Positions 5,305 to 46,481 of a DNA stretch of 64,000 nt are shown here, piece after piece. The position numbers were made by a program, and so were the translations under genes. The notes beneath the pieces were generated by a model. It saw nothing but the letters and a program-made list of their open reading frames with translations, searched no databases and had not been told where the DNA came from. The DNA lies in contig CAWCPV010000007.1 in NCBI GenBank assembly GCA_963797555.1, forward strand, positions 288,001-352,000, given 5' to 3'. The stretch is from an uncultured Gammaproteobacteria bacterium (GTDB taxonomy: Bacteria; Pseudomonadota; Gammaproteobacteria; CAWCPV01). The first letter of the stretch is position 1. Each line of letters begins with the position of its first letter.

Positions 5305-5360
5305 GCGGACAATGTCCGTGTTTAAACACGGACAACGTCCGTCTACTCATATGTTAGGGC
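5305..5360 (+). other. attI-like site at the head of the cassette array
   Basis: Palindrome TGTCCGTGTTTAAACACGGACA then GTCCGTCTACTCATAT-GTTAGGGC; the core is complementary to GCCCTAAC of the first attC; no attC-type hairpin upstream. Confidence 0.55.
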
Positions 5361-5381: not shown

Positions 5382-5999
5382 GTGACAACACTAGATAAAG
5401 AACGACCCGCACAAGACATCGATCCCGATCCGCTTTCCGCATTGGTGATCGCACTTGGTGCCGTCGGATCCATTGCCTCTATCTATGCCGTAGTGGACTC
5501 AAGAGTTTCGAAATACAGGCAAGAGCGCCAAGCCAATTGCAATGCTATTCGTGATGCCGTGATGGGGGTGGAGACATCACTCAATGAGCTACGAGGGTAC
5601 GTTAAGTCTCTCGAAATCAGCTTCTTGACGGGAACCCAGTCAAGATCGCCTGATCGAAACTCGATGTTGTCGATGGCTCAGTTCGGAAGCGTTCGACTCG
5701 TTTTTACAAGAGATGGATACGAGAGATGGCGAGAGATCGAAGAGGGAATACTTGTCGCCGTTGGTAGGATGAATAAACATGTGAACGACTTGATTCGCCA
5801 TTTTGCCACGTCTGATATTGCTTTACCTAGCGAAATCGCCAGCCGACTACAGAATACAATTGGTCGCATGAATGAAATACTTCACGGAATGAGTCAAATG
5901 CATTTCGAACGGTTGTTCGGCCTCTTGGAGGCGGTAATGGGAGAATGCATGGAAGTTATGGGCCGATTCAGAATGACCATATATGAGATCTGCAGATGA
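5382..5999 (+). CDS. Gene cassette 1: hypothetical protein, N-terminal TM helix, helical body
   Basis: 205-aa lower-GC ORF bounded by GTTAGGGC (5353) and GCCCTAAC (6001). Confidence 0.75.
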   Translation: MTTLDKERPAQDIDPDPLSALVIALGAVGSIASIYAVVDSRVSKYRQERQANCNAIRDAVMGVETSLNELRGYVKSLEISFLTGTQSRSPDRNSMLSMAQFGSVRLVFTRDGYERWREIEEGILVAVGRMNKHVNDLIRHFATSDIALPSEIASRLQNTIGRMNEILHGMSQMHFERLFGLLEAVMGECMEVMGRFRMTIYEICR

Positions 6000-6000
6000 A

Positions 6001-6061
6001 GCCCTAACCAGGCGCTCCAGCGGACCGCTCCTAACGTCGCGGCCGCTGAGCTTTATCGTTA
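6001..6061 (+). other. attC site 1, with R' core interrupted by the intron
   Basis: GCCCTAAC-CAGGCGCTCCAGCGGACCGC...GCGGCCGCTGAGC-TTTATC-GTTA; the rest of the core (GGC) resumes at 6858. Confidence 0.85.
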
Positions 6062-6857
6062 TCGCGCTGGGCAAAGCTCGGCGCTTCTTGCAGGGTGAGA
6101 GTCCCTGTCGGGAGAGAGGTCTAAGGCATCTTCATAAGGGCTAGCCACCCACCCGTATCGAAGTCTTGGGTCCGTGGCGGAGTCGTCGAGAGGCTGCGAA
6201 CAAGACGGGCTAAGCGTAGACAGAGTATCCTGTAGGCCGTAGGGGAGGCCGCGCTCCCTGAAGTGCTGGTACAGCTTCGAGATAAGCTTGTTGCGGACGC
6301 CGAGGGTTTTAACGTGCACCGAAGGCAACACAAGAGCATCCGTCTGTGGCGAGGGTGTGAAGGTCCGCCGGAGTCCTCAGGCCGTGGCATGCAGGAAGAG
6401 AGGCGTCAGAGAACCCAGGAGGCCCCATCGGCTCCTGGCCGGAGGGAAGCCGGACAGACGGTATACGGCTATTGAGGCACGGAAGGGGAAACCCGGGAAC
6501 AGGGTTAGGCCGGAACCTAAGTGGACGGAGGGAACCCGGAGCAGGAAGGCGGAGAAGTACTGTAGAAGGGAAAGCCTGCCAGATGCGGTTGGGGAGTCTT
6601 ATCAGGCATAGTACTCGGAGGTGGGGAAAGCCCACCACAAGGGGAAGGACCTGACGGAAGTACGCAGCCTGTAAAGGAAACTTGCACCGGACAGAGTCGG
6701 GCCGGAGAATGTAAGCGAACCTCACTGCGGGCAATAGCAAACAGACGGCGAGTCGTCGTCTGCGCGGAAGCGAGTACAACCGAGGAACCGGATGCGGAAA
6801 AACTGCACGTCCGGGTCTGTGCCGGGGGCGGCGGGTGACCGCCGTCCCTACGGCGGA
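6062..6857 (+). ncRNA. ORF-less group II intron (class E-like), non-autonomous
   Basis: 5' end TCGCGCTGGGCAAAGCTCGGCGC; domain V GAGGAACCGGATGCGGAAAAACTGCACGTCCGGGTCTGTGCCGGGG at 6782-6827; domain VI hairpin ending CCCTACGGCGGA; DIV holds only IEP end stubs (TSLRAIANR); removing it restores GTTAGGC. Confidence 0.85.
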
Positions 6858-6897
6858 GGCGTCACAATTTCCTTGACATCACTGCGAAGGCCGCATC

Positions 6898-7533
6898 ATG
6901 GAACCAGCAAACTATTTCACCACTGCAGCAAGTCTCATGGAGTTCCTAAATTCCACGGAAACTGGCCTGTCTCACCGAACGGCTGGCGCCCGTCTCTTAA
7001 GACTCGGATGCAAGGCGCTTCGTGACCTGAGTCGGGACATGGAACCCGATGGAGACATTGCGTGGGCGCTGAATCATCTAGCCGTCGTAGATAAGACGGG
7101 CCGACAGCTAGACGACTTTGAAGATTCCGGCCGTGCAATCTTTGACGTGTTTATCGCCGCCGAGTCCAGTCTCTTCGAGAAGATCGGCATGCCCCCTGAC
7201 ATTCGGCGGTTCGTGATGAATAGAGCGACCGATCTCAAGCATGAGTACTGGAATCTGGAGAACATACCGCCTGCTACTTGGACGCGAATGCAACAAGAAG
7301 TGCAGGCCCTTGCGGCTGAAATTTGCAGCTACGCTGAATCTTTCGTCGAACTCGAAAAATGGCGCCATGCTGGCAACAGAAGTGCATTTGTGCTCATTGG
7401 TGGCGGGATCATTACTCTCAACGCTTCTCCAGCGGCGCTTGATCTCGGCCTTACAACTTGGATGACTGCAAAGTCCGGAAAATTGGGAAGCTGGATCATG
7501 AAGATGGGAACACGCGAGAGCGAGATGAAGTGA
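6898..7533 (+). CDS. Gene cassette 2: hypothetical protein
   Basis: 211-aa ORF whose stop codon abuts the attC R'' GCCTAAC. Confidence 0.75.
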   Translation: MEPANYFTTAASLMEFLNSTETGLSHRTAGARLLRLGCKALRDLSRDMEPDGDIAWALNHLAVVDKTGRQLDDFEDSGRAIFDVFIAAESSLFEKIGMPPDIRRFVMNRATDLKHEYWNLENIPPATWTRMQQEVQALAAEICSYAESFVELEKWRHAGNRSAFVLIGGGIITLNASPAALDLGLTTWMTAKSGKLGSWIMKMGTRESEMK

Positions 7534-7534
7534 G

Positions 7535-7611
7535 GCCTAACCACTCGTCGCAGCGGACAACACCCGTGCGTTCGCACGGGTGTTGTCCGTTGAACTCACA
7601 CGGCGTTAGGT
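7535..7611 (+). other. attC site 2
   Basis: GCCTAAC...CGGACAACACCCGTGCG-TT-CGCACGGGTGTTGTCCG...GTTAGGT. Confidence 0.85.
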
Positions 7612-7618
7612 CTGTAAA

Positions 7619-8221
7619 TTGATCTACGCCCAAACTCCATCAAGAATCACCAAGGAAATTGAAGAGGTATGCGCACAAATCACAACAGCGCATAAGCCCA
7701 TATTTCTGCGGGTCACCCAGCAACCTTGGAGTGCACTTCAAGAGTGTTACCAGAATGTAAAGATTGCCGTTGATCATCACGGCGGCTCTCTTGTATATGG
7801 CTAGAATATATTTCTTTGGCCTCGGGTTTGGATTGAACGTGAAGCTCATGCTGCCTGGAAAAACGAAAAAGGCGAGCTTGTTGAAGTAACTCCACGTCCG
7901 GACAATGAGGAAATTCTGCTATTCCTTCAGGATGACAGTGCAGAATATAAAGGCATAAGGCATGATAATCTTCGGTTTTCATTAGCTTCCTCGCCTATTG
8001 TTCATGAGCTTATAGCGGTATCTCAGGAAAGGTTTAAGGTACTTACGCAATATGCAACGCCGCTCTCAAACCAAGTACAGGTTGCTGTTGTTGCATTCCG
8101 AGCAATTGAGCAGAAATTCCAACAACTACATGAAGCCATAAATTGGAAACCTCAACGTAATGATTTGTGTCCATGCGGCAGCAGAAAGAAATACAAGCAT
8201 TGCCATGAAAAACAAACCTAA
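7619..8221 (+). pseudogene. Gene cassette 3: SEC-C motif protein, interrupted by a stop and frameshift(s)
   Basis: Low-GC ORF 7619..7804 stops at TAG; downstream sequence encodes RNDLCPCGSRKKYKHCH (SEC-C) ending at the TAA inside R''. Confidence 0.75.
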
Positions 8222-8337
8222 CAATGCGCTGCAGCCGACCGGCCATGAAGCGGCTTCGTTTTCCGTCTGCTCGTCACTCACTCTCGGCTCTCCTGTTGCG
8301 CTCAGCGCCGGGCCGGCGGCTGAGCTTGGCGTTGAAC
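8216..8337 (+). other. attC site 3
   Basis: ACCTAAC-AATGCGCTGCAGCCGACCGGCC...GGCCGGCGGCTGAGC-TTGGC-GTTGAAC; R'' is complementary to GTTAGGT at 7605. Confidence 0.8.
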
Positions 8338-8515
8338 TAAACCGCTTACGCGGTGGTTTCGTTTCCTTAGCGTTTCCGCTTTATTTCTGGCTGAATTTCC
8401 ACCCCATTTCGACGCTGTCATGCACCCCGACATTCACCGGGGCACCATTTTGCCTGACGTTTTGCGAGGTCTCATGACCGCTCTGCCAAGCTGTATGTGT
8501 AGCCGAATGGAGCCG

Positions 8516-9474
8516 AATGGGGTCAGACACGATATCTGTGCTATCCTTCGTGCAGTCAGTTCACGACCTGAACCGCCATGGCCCGCCTTCCCGGCTACGT
8601 CATCCCCGGGCAACCGCAGCACATCATCCACGCGGCAACAACCGCCAGGGTATACCAGGGTATATCGGGGGTCAGTTCCCGCCTTGTAGCCTGCCGAGGA
8701 CATGGTGTCGTGCGGGCCATGGCGAGACGGCCGCGCATCGAATTCTCCGGGTGCACGGTATTATGTGGCCTCTCGCGGTGATCGGCGCGAGCCATCTTCG
8801 ATGATGACGGAGATCGTCAGAGGTTTCTGAGCACGCTGGCCGAGGTGGTCCAGCGGTTCAACTGAGGCGTTTAGAGGCAAGCGTCGGCATCAGCGCGGCC
8901 ACCTGTTTCAGGGGCGGTTCGCTGGCGAGAACGTGATAGAGCGAGGTCAGAATGGGGTCAGACACGATAGCGGTGCTATCCTTCTTGCAGTCAGTTCACG
9001 ACCTGAACCGCCATGGCCCGCCTTCCCGGCTAACGTCATCCCCGGGCAACCGCAGCACATCATCCACGCGGCAACAACCGCCAGGGTATACCAGGGTATA
9101 TCGGGGGTCAGTTCCCGCCTTGTAGCCTGCCGAGGACATGGTGTCGTGCGGGCCATGGCGAGACGGCCGCGCATCGAATTCTCCGGGTGCAGGGTATTAT
9201 GTGGCCTCTCGCGGTGATCGGCGCGAGCCCATCTTCGATGAGGACGGAGATCGCCAGAGGTTTCTGAGCACGCTGGCCGAGGTGGTCCAGCGGTTCAACT
9301 GGTTGTGCCATGCGTACTGACCAATCATTACCACTGGTAATGTGAACCCCGCAGGACAATCTGTCCAAAGGCATGCGGCAGCTCAATGGCGTTTACACGC
9401 AGGCGTCGAACCGGCGGCATCAGCGCAGCGGCCACCTGTTTCAGGGGCGGTTCGCTGGCGAGAACGTGATAGAG
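8516..9474 (+). repeat. Tandem duplication (8516-8941 and 8951-9474) of chimeric RAYT/Y1 transposase fragments
   Basis: Each copy has AATGGGGTCAGACACGAT + MARLPGYVIPGQPQHII + GGGGTCAGTTC + MARRPRIEFSG...RGDRREPIF; copy 1 has an internal deletion. Confidence 0.8.
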
Positions 9475-10504: not shown

Positions 10505-10777
10505 ACTCGCCCGGGGGCACATCGAGTCAGTCCTCCCCGTGTAATCTCTGTTGGAGTCGTGTTCGTGCACCAGGACGAACCAGGACGAATGGGGTCAGAC
10601 ACGATATTTGTGCCATCCTTCGTAGGAGCTAGGGGGTCAGTTCTCGCTTCGTAAACTCTGGGGAGGACGCGGTGCGGTGGGAAAAATCCGGGGCTCCGGA
10701 GCCACCGGGCCCAGACCTAAGAGACTGGGATCCCGCCGGGTTGCATCCAGTGTGCGCTCGCTGTGCAGCGGGCAGGG

Positions 10778-45589: not shown

Positions 45590-46481
45590 TCAGTCCCGGT
45601 AACGCCTCAGCAGGTCCTGGTGGGCGTCAATGCGGCGGTCGCGCAGGAAGGGCCACATGCGCCGGACGCGTTCGCTGCGCCCCAGGTCGACCTCGGCCGC
45701 GAGGACCACGGGCGCGTCGGCCGGGGCCTGGGCAAGGATCTCCCCCTGGGGTCCCGCCACGAAGCTGCTGCCCCAAAACTCGATGCCCTGGCGTTGCCCG
45801 GAAGGGTCGGGCTCGCGTCCGGTGCGGTTGCATGCGACGAGGGGCAGGCCGTTGGCGACGGCGTGGGCGCGCTGCACGGTGACCCACGCGTCGCGGTGGC
45901 GCCGGCGCTCGGCGTCGTCGTCCCCCGGGTCCCAGCCGATGGCGCTGGGATACAGCAGCAGGTCGGCACCGGCGAGCGCCATGAGGCGGGCTGCCTCGGG
46001 GAACCACTGGTCCCAGCAGACGAGTACTCCCGAGACGTCCGACTGAAGTCTGAACCGGGTGAAAGCCGAGGTCCCCAGGAGCGAAATAGAATTTCTCGTG
46101 ATAGCCGGGGTCATCGGGAATATGCATTTTGCGGTAGCAGCCGGCGAGGCTCCCGTCCCGCTCCAACACGGCTGCCGTATTGTGGTGCAGGCCCGGCGCC
46201 CGGCGCTCGAACAGCGAGGCGACCACCACGACTTCCGGATCTGCCGCGAGCTTACCGAGCGCCTCCGAAGTGGGGCCGGGCACCGGCTCTGCCAGGTCGA
46301 AGCAGCCAGGGTCTTCCGTTTGGCAGAAATAGAGGCTGCTGTGTAGCTCCTGAAGCAGCACCAAGCGCGCACCGAGGCCGACGGCGGCGCGAATTCCGTC
46401 CAGCGAGGCGGCGAGATTGCGAGCTCGGTCCTCTTCGCAGGAGTGCTGGACGCAAGCGACGACCAAACGGTTTTCGTTCAC
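45590..46481 (-). CDS. aguB: N-carbamoylputrescine amidase, duplicate copy; apparent frameshift
   Basis: LLQELH, YRKMHIPDDPGYHEKFYF, VCWDQWFPEAAR. Confidence 0.88.

Follow-up and report, generated by a model that had tools for sequence, protein, structure and literature searches.

An ORF-less group II intron inside an integron attC site, from a lineage that appears to home to the attC top strand by base pairing

A 796-nt group II intron without an open reading frame occupies positions 6062-6857 on the + strand of the window, by which we mean the whole 64,000-nt stretch of DNA that was analysed, and splits the attC site between two integron gene cassettes. We regard it as a non-autonomous copy belonging to a lineage that homes to the attC top strand, at GTTA|RRY, mainly by RNA-DNA pairing, and assign this reading a probability of about 0.85. 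In the proposed mechanism, EBS1, with the sequence UAACG(N), would pair with (N)CGTTA at the end of the 5' exon, a variable EBS2 would pair with exon positions -14 to -9, and the EBS3 base would pair with the first base of the 3' exon. The window copy, in which the ribozyme is conserved and the RT has been lost, would splice efficiently and move only with an intron-encoded protein (IEP) supplied in trans. The excised intron RNA and such a trans-acting IEP would reverse-splice into the single-stranded attC top strand after (N)CGTTA, and the IEP, being En-minus, would depend on host replication for priming, as described for En-minus introns in the available part of PMC4424553. These steps of splicing and mobility are inferred. 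The features to which the text refers are the following.

5382-5999, +: ORF of cassette 1, 205 aa, no Pfam family
6002-6061, +: 5' part of attC-1, comprising R'' (GCCCTAAC), the L''/L' stem, the spacer and the first four bases (GTTA) of R'; from sequence and the joined-exon fold
6048-6053, +: candidate IBS2 (GAGCTT, positions -14 to -9), complementary to AAGCUU at 6284-6289
6057-6061, +: IBS1 (CGTTA), from covariation with EBS1
6062-6857, +: ORF-less group II intron, 5'-UCGCG...GGCGGA-3', from Rfam and copy comparison
6064-6084, +: 5' hairpin, IA-like, directly after the first two bases; both arms covary in relatives
6091-6107, +: conserved hairpin CAGGGUGAGAGUCCCUG, from sequence; part of the scan pattern
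6122-6383, +: domain I core, from the RF02005 match
6284-6289, +: candidate EBS2 (AAGCUU), from covariation seen by eye
6299-6326, +: EBS1 hairpin, with EBS1 = UAACG at 6310-6314; from fold and covariation
6376, +: candidate EBS3, the bracketed C in GGAGUC[C]UCAGG, which pairs with G6858; from the covariation count
6633-6703, +: remnant of IEP codons 1-24, with no ATG and an in-frame stop; from alignment to a longer relative
6704-6760, +: junction of the deletion of about 1.3 kb that removed the RT/maturase gene; from alignment to a longer relative
6784-6818, +: domain V (DV), loop AAAAA, with AAC (6786-6788) instead of the AGC triad; from RF00029 and fold
6820-6855, +: domain VI (DVI), with bulged A6850 7 nt before the 3' splice site; from fold
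6858-6864, +: remaining R' core and start of cassette 2 (GGCGTCA), with G6858 = IBS3; from sequence, fold and covariation
6898-7533, +: ORF of cassette 2, 211 aa, no Pfam family
7535-7611, +: attC-2 (GCCTAAC...GTTAGGT), unoccupied despite carrying CGTTA

The first-pass annotation of this DNA had described a group II ribozyme of about 800 nt with domains V and VI, and had called for its classification with Rfam. Its identity as a group II intron is confirmed by the + strand match of RF02005 (group-II-D1D4-6) to 6122-6383, which scores 83.1 bits where the gathering score is 49, taken together with the DV/DVI fold and the borders at 6062-6857. With the DV/DVI model RF00029, positions 6783-6851 reach only 29.8 bits, under the cut-off of 40. 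In the predicted fold, which has an energy of -45.6 kcal/mol for DV plus DVI (z = -4.2), DV (6784-6818) has a 2-nt bulge and a 5-nt loop, AAAAA, and DVI has bulged U6849 and A6850, the latter 7 nt from the 3' end of the intron, within the 7-8 nt expected of a group II intron. Neither MFE nor alifold folding of the whole intron gave a trustworthy global structure, and only local helices are reported. The borders are fixed by comparison of the four near-full-length copies in the genome to which the window belongs (G000): their common sequence runs exactly from TCGCGC to GGCGGA, and the flanks are unrelated. An intron end at 6851, as the RF00029 alignment would place it, was rejected because all copies share sequence up to GGCGGA. 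The possibility that GTTA is part of the intron, which would then begin 5'-GUUAU..., was also ruled out, since identical copies differ at position -4, siblings have GUGCG directly after GTTA, and the exon covaries with the EBS1 loop. A promoter and terminator scan found no promoter-like or terminator-like site within the intron.

The history of the element was reconstructed from the other copies in its genome. A DNA search of the assembly (5.35 Mb in 20 contigs, 84.6% complete) returned 18 matches to the intron, four of them near full length: the window copy and the copies at C14:392959-393760, C3:686119-686925 and C4:743173-743972. Identity is 99.9-100% among the latter three, and 93.4-93.5% between them and the window copy. 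The closest longer relative in the genome, C4:299460-301484 (2025 nt, 81% identical), encodes an RT/maturase that Pfam recognises through RVT_1 and, in truncated form, GIIM. When the two introns are aligned globally, the window copy corresponds to positions 1-613 and 1929-2025 of this relative, with 614-1928 missing. The deletion of about 1.3 kb left only the equivalent of IEP codons 1-24, without the ATG and with a stop, in keeping with the initial description of mere IEP stubs and no RT. The ORF-less status is thus supported by the lack of an RT ORF, by the presence of several copies and by related IEP-encoding introns in the same genome. A search for full-length RT-encoding relatives, which had been recommended, found them in this genome, where their IEP genes are defective, and in public genomes.

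An intact cognate IEP was not found in the 84.6% complete assembly. The IEP of the 2025-nt relative is frameshifted in the X domain, after the YYG.RGN motif, and continues in another frame that matches the C-termini of relatives; in a further IEP copy, on contig C5, a nested intron belonging to a different Rfam type interrupts the gene at YADD, and the remaining related matches are fragments. The missing protein may lie in the unassembled 15% of the genome, the frameshift may be an assembly error, or the IEP at C14:379124, which is of the same Rfam type and 42% identical, may act as a substitute. The three near-identical ORF-less copies at different sites show, at the level of sequence comparison, a recent multiplication, and such multiplication of ORF-less forms is inferred to require an IEP in trans. 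Because the window copy has diverged by 6.5% from these three young and recently active copies, it may itself no longer move. The most serious alternative to our reading is that the window copy is an inert fossil, that is, a decaying, immobile and unspliced remnant that merely disrupts attC-1. The absence of an RT, the want of an intact cognate IEP in the assembly, the 6.5% divergence from the active sub-lineage and a non-canonical catalytic triad all fit such a remnant, but the ribozyme does not look decayed: across the first 400 nt, 100 columns reach 95% conservation or more in a set of 37 non-redundant relatives, and the window copy departs at 0 of them; both DV and DVI are intact.

The insertion site is an attC site by the usual structural criteria. 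The intron is flanked by CGTTA on the 5' side and GGCGTCA on the 3' side, as had been read initially (an attC core split as CGTTA|intron|GGCGTCA), and the exons, when joined in a script, fold as a canonical attC. This fold (-17.5 kcal/mol) pairs TAAC with GTTA and GCC with GGC, leaves a spacer unpaired and includes an imperfect L''/L' stem, satisfying the attC criteria of paired R''/R' inverse cores around such a stem. The sequence TGAGGCCTAAC at 7531-7541 is the R'' of the next attC, and its reverse complement has one mismatch in 11 positions to the restored core GTTAGGCGTCA; the 10/11 match noted earlier is thus confirmed on the sequence, and the bases 3' of the intron can be attributed to cassette 2's own attC. 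Low-GC ORFs, all on the same strand, are separated by further attC-like sites at about 5352-5358, 7535-7611 and 8216-8337. A single integron integrase gene is present in the genome (TIGR02249, 502 bits, C7:47556-48500), and GCCTAAC...GTTAGGC sites of the same type adjoin it. As this IntI is 240 kb away from the window, the cassette array in the window is a CALIN.

The intron shares the + strand with the cassette ORFs on either side of it, and the earlier proposal of a top-strand, cassette-sense insertion within GTTA|GGC therefore stands. Owing to this sense direction, the intron could in principle be spliced from read-through cassette transcripts. It lies 3 nt 3' of G|TT, which we take to be the crossover point of the integrase, and would for that reason be carried at the 5' end of cassette 2; the suggestion that it travels with this cassette is supported to that extent. 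The intron separates the two halves of the R' box, and only TAAC/GTTA of the R box stays contiguous. We infer, in the absence of recombination data, that the split R' should weaken integrase binding at attC-1.

Recognition of the exons by base pairing is the central element of our reading. The sequence TAACG at 6310-6314, proposed in the first-pass annotation as an EBS1 complementary to CGTTA, lies within the loop of the hairpin at 6299-6326. Among the matches listed, 35 introns yielded both the loop sequence and 8 nt or more of exon; the loop contains the exact complement of exon positions -5 to -1 in 27 of these, with at least five contiguous pairs counted from -1 in 32. Four relatives with divergent exons have compensating changes in the loop (exon/loop TCCTTA/TAAGGA in L100, GCCATT/AATGGC in L127, AACGTTC/GAACGTT in L135 and TGTTCA/TGAACA in the C2 copy of the window's genome), and the loop base that comes next changes together with exon position -6 as well. 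The loop location, the compensating relatives and the exact complements together uphold the proposed EBS1, and the covariation confirms the predicted EBS1-IBS1 pairing. For EBS2, loop columns and exon positions covary by eye in L100, L127, L117 and the C2 copy of the genome; many sites of Desulfosarcina and other copies have no IBS2 match, and EBS2 is accordingly retained only as a candidate. The EBS3-IBS3 position forms 15 Watson-Crick pairs and one G.U pair among 27 introns, 6 of which are gapped at this column. In the window copy IBS1, IBS2 and IBS3 still match its EBS1, EBS2 and EBS3, which also argues against an inert fossil.

To place the element among its relatives, a pattern of the 5' ribozyme was scanned against public species-representative genomes and matched at least 114 stretches; 81 matches at 80 loci, among the matches listed, form our relative set. 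The listed relatives are found in Gammaproteobacteria (including many purple sulfur bacteria and their kin), Desulfobacterota, Planctomycetota, Nitrospirales and other groups. Among genomes related to that of the window, 5 out of 61 have a match, this genome counted; one of the five is unpublished, and none of our claims depends on it. The 79 listed matches with a 5' end begin with TCGCG in 62 cases, GTGCG in 6 and GCGCG in 2. Where at least 5 nt of 5' exon are available (78 listed relatives), the exon ends in CGTTA in 52 and CGTTG in 6, and GTT is present at positions -4 to -2 in 61. The six canonical GUGCG siblings directly follow CGTTA or TGTTG, which places the 5' splice site after GTTA, and on this comparison UCGCG is the lineage's version of GUGYG.

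Target sites were evaluated with a crude attC test, which looks for AAC 35-140 nt upstream and a single enclosed hairpin of -8 kcal/mol or lower that reaches within 10 nt of both cores. This test was passed by 31 of 75 listed sites in comparison with 40 of 400 random GTTR sites from the same loci (Fisher p = 5e-10); the failures comprise 27 listed sites with GTT and 17 without. The test passes 10% of controls and misses sites that are attC by eye (for example L066 and L074), and because several failures are of this kind, the attC fraction of 41% is a floor. A recurring upstream motif, …YTGAGCTTNNCGTTA and its variants, is the L'/R' end of attC sites. These comparisons show a preference of the lineage for attC. 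The first-pass annotation had proposed to score the flanks for GTTA|RRY as in attC sites; the 5' side fits, with CGTTA or CGTTG in 58 of 78 listed relatives and at least 31 of 75 sites attC-like, and on the 3' side the exons often fail to restore RRY. With relatives in many genomes at CGTTA| of attC-like sites, the idea that the lineage can target many cassettes is supported. Tandem copies, in which a second intron directly follows the first, were found at L069, L115 and L094, as would be expected if an intact 5' exon can be re-invaded. Within the window's own genome, the window copy, a fragment on C2 and probably a fragment on C8 are at attC-like sites, and the three young copies are at non-attC sites ending in GCGTTA, ACGTTA and CCATTA; sequence pairing is evidently enough for such ectopic insertion.

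The window copy has U6062-C6063 at its 5' end, A6786-A6787-C6788 in DV and G6856-A6857 at its 3' end, and so departs from both the 5'-GUGYG...AY-3' termini and the AGC/CGC triad consensus. We compared these positions in the 23 relatives with both ends, out of 26 in the listed set with DV found. All 19 UCGCG-starting relatives have AAC at the triad, and they end in GGA (7), GAGA (11) or CGA (1), in contrast to the four relatives that start with GUGCG or GCGCG, all of which have an AGC triad and end in GAU or UAC. Since many of the UCGCG/AAC introns carry long open IEP frames, the UCGCG/AAC/GA combination is a conserved state of the lineage and not decay. This weakens the one argument for an inert fossil that concerns the active site, because the unusual triad and 5' end, present in 19 of 19 relatives with that 5' end and in many with full-length IEP frames, are a trait of the lineage; we consider a fossil unlikely. 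None of U1, the final GA and AAC fits the consensus on which catalysis depends in the introns studied so far, and there are no splicing data for this lineage. The co-occurrence of the three features, set against the four canonical siblings, amounts to a natural covariation experiment on the group II active site.

Loss of the RT gene is not restricted to the window's genome. Among listed relatives with both ends defined, 6 of 23 are ORF-less (708-815 nt), and they are scattered on a quick tree of the 5' 400 nt for which no support values were considered, which suggests several apparently independent ORF losses. Repeated ORF-less origins of this kind could be read differently, as co-option of the RNA, which might serve as a protein-free, HYER-like nuclease guided by its EBS to single-stranded attC DNA, or might regulate how cassettes are expressed or recombined. 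Conserved positions have been kept, contigs from RNA libraries exist (see below), and ORF-less IIC introns can hydrolyse ssDNA (available part of PMC11754743). There is no direct evidence for any such function, however; repeated ORF loss with multiplication is typical of parasitic non-autonomous elements, and three of the four copies in the window's genome lie outside attC sites, so that we find co-option improbable. Mobility of a non-autonomous, trans-dependent intron remains the preferred reading.

The class of the lineage was approached through both protein and RNA. An intact lineage IEP (L122) was compared with four solved RTs and scores 135-136 bits with every one of them; they comprise two IIC RTs (including the GsI-IIC RT), LtrA (IIA) and the T.el4h RT (CL1). 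A true IIC IEP in the window's genome (C4:644476) scores 468 bits against the GsI-IIC RT, and the intron that encodes it is recognised at the RNA level by RF02001/RF01998 and not by RF02005. An ordinary IIC-attC intron deprived of its ORF would share the attC location, the small ribozyme and, in the canonical siblings, 5' and 3' ends that resemble the class C boundary consensus (available part of PMC4028801), but can be practically discarded, as the initial annotation had also held, given an IEP no closer to the GsI-IIC RT than to LtrA and the T.el4h RT, the RF02005 match, the 5-7 bp EBS1 pairing plus EBS2, the 5-nt DV loop and insertion in the top strand as opposed to the bottom strand used by IIC-attC introns (available part of PMC3001079).

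Intact lineage IEPs have an RVT_1 match and a weak GIIM (maturase) match, and no endonuclease domain. The 5-nt DV loop is AAAAA in the window copy and GAAAA in most relatives. Hallmarks of classes E and F are a 5-nt DV loop, alpha' at the tip of the DId3 stem-loop and a ribozyme of 450-700 nt (Nagy et al., PMC3753933, available part); of these, the DV loop and the ribozyme size are present. The hairpin that follows EBS1 contains a candidate alpha', GUGGC at 6346-6350, with the potential to pair with GCCAC at 6144-6148, as judged by eye and without a covariation count. Papers that name RF02005 give no class for it, and the 40 matches listed from a tblastn search of plasmids all have at most 43% identity and carry no class labels. 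Without a phylogeny that includes reference IEPs, a class E-like placement is plausible, with class F or an unclassified group as the alternatives. The lineage has in common with classes IIE and IIF the 5-nt DV loop, a small ribozyme, an En-minus IEP and EBS1 plus EBS2 in domain I (available part of PMC3753933). The characterised members of those classes have GUGYG...AY termini, whereas most of this lineage has UCGCG...GA and AAC.

Several described systems share some of these properties. In the available part of PMC3001079, IIC-attC introns occupy the bottom strand of attC, in antisense orientation relative to the cassettes, block Pc transcription and supply their own outward promoter; they reportedly depend on the DNA stem-loop, have only a short EBS1 and lack EBS2 (available parts of PMC3753933 and PMC8643678). 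The window element resembles S.ma.I2 and its kin in attC specialisation, an En-minus IEP and insertion beside the GTT/AAC core at the foot of the hairpin, but differs in its sense-strand position, in an IEP that is not class C and in the 5-7 bp pairing with (N)CGTTA together with EBS2. From the part of Sonbol and Siam 2021 (PMC7923331) that was available, UHB.I2 is an IIB1/CL1 intron, 5'-UUGCG...GU-3', that lies in cassette orientation immediately after an attC. It is similarly a non-IIC intron in a cassette array with a 5' U, but encodes a CL1 IEP and ends in GU. H.ha.F1 and H.ha.F2, given there as class E fragments downstream of attC-like hairpins in a CALIN, are likewise non-IIC and located in a cassette array, but are 5'-truncated, so that the insertion point is not visible. 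The available main text of that paper, without its supplements, does not describe lineage-wide site specificity, EBS1-attC pairing or an ORF-less form.

Bacteria are known, though rarely, to carry ORF-less introns alongside related copies that encode an IEP (available part of PMC4424553). In Thermosynechococcus elongatus, ORF-less IIB1 introns have multiplied beside related IEP-encoding introns and are trans-mobilised (available part of PMC8643678; see also PMC2882425). The likeness to the window's genome lies in this multiplication of ORF-less copies where related IEP-encoding introns are present, and the T. elongatus introns differ in being CL1/IIB1, with canonical termini and no attC targeting. 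In the literature outside subscription papers and supplements, we found neither a lineage-wide base-pairing specificity for the top-strand R' core, nor the UCGCG/AAC/GA syndrome, nor ORF-less attC-resident forms. A broader proposal can be built on these comparisons, namely a widespread, apparently undescribed, class E/F-like lineage that homes to the R' top strand of attC by EBS1, rides in sense orientation, has U1-C2 and G-A ends and AAC with a swapped purine-purine mismatch in the DV triad, and recurrently loses its RT to give small, trans-mobilised ribozymes. We put this forward tentatively, as its chances fall somewhat short of even.

Bacteria capture genes chiefly through integrons, in which attC sites are the only conserved handle. 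If another intron lineage has independently come to target attC, the attC core would be a recurrent niche for retroelements, here occupied on the opposite strand and by base pairing, not by hairpin recognition. If the broader proposal is true, the elements could gate cassette excision by splitting R', and would provide natural RNA guides for the conserved attC core. They would add a player to cassette dynamics that travels with a cassette, may be spliceable from its transcript, as inferred above, and splits the R' box. The small ORF-less forms, with a guide of 5-7 nt plus EBS2, are also of interest beside the HYER ribozymes.

Public sequencing data provide a final observation on RNA. The window locus itself is absent from public sequencing runs (best share 0.10). 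Four RNA-labelled runs, each from a different study (peat, leaf litter and soil), provide contigs that, at 85% identity or more, cover only 6048-6861. These contigs come from relatives and may include DNA, so they are weak evidence: they cannot show splicing, and the fact that the exons are uncovered is no evidence either way. Some cross the deletion junction, for example those covering 6641-6791 and 6637-6858, and they offer no more than a hint of ORF-less relatives that occur widely and may be abundant as RNA.

Three attC sites, one within the window (7535-7611) and two on contig C7 of the same genome (G000:C7:43755-43825 and 46217-46347), carry no intron and end in CGTTAGG(C/T). Judged by sequence match, they would be compatible with the EBS1 of the resident introns, making them potential homing sites that are still vacant. 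At three loci, L069 (3021 and 5118), L115 and L094, the attC-homing intron occurs in tandem, head to tail, and the second copy begins immediately at the 3' end of the first, an arrangement consistent with re-invasion of an already occupied site.

An optional additional segment of ~23-25 nt, located at 6113-6134 in the window, separates the GGGUGAGAGUCCC hairpin from the GCUAGCCAC hairpin; among the matches listed, it is carried by the window copy and by 31 of the 81, the 'long' matches, and is missing from the other 50. In the lower helix of domain V, as read by eye in the relatives, the middle triad base lies opposite a purine in both intron types, with A facing G in the UCGCG introns and G facing A in their GUGCG siblings. 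By this reading, the pair looks like a swapped purine-purine mismatch replacing the usual G.U.

Further group II introns were observed in the same genome. A full-length relative (L059, G000:C5:219774-224000) forms a twintron, its IEP gene being split at the YADD codons by a second group II intron that matches Rfam families RF01999 and RF00029 and encodes its own 398-aa IEP. At G000:C4:643000-647500 (L058) lies a genuine class C (IIC) intron whose 444-aa IEP is intact and scores 468 bits versus the GsI-IIC RT; this intron served as an internal control in the analysis.

Immediately past the cassette cluster, the window contains two direct repeats that are 96-99% identical:

8515-8864, direct repeat of ~350 bp, one copy
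8950-9301, direct repeat of ~350 bp, other copy

A start related to this repeat recurs near 10590.
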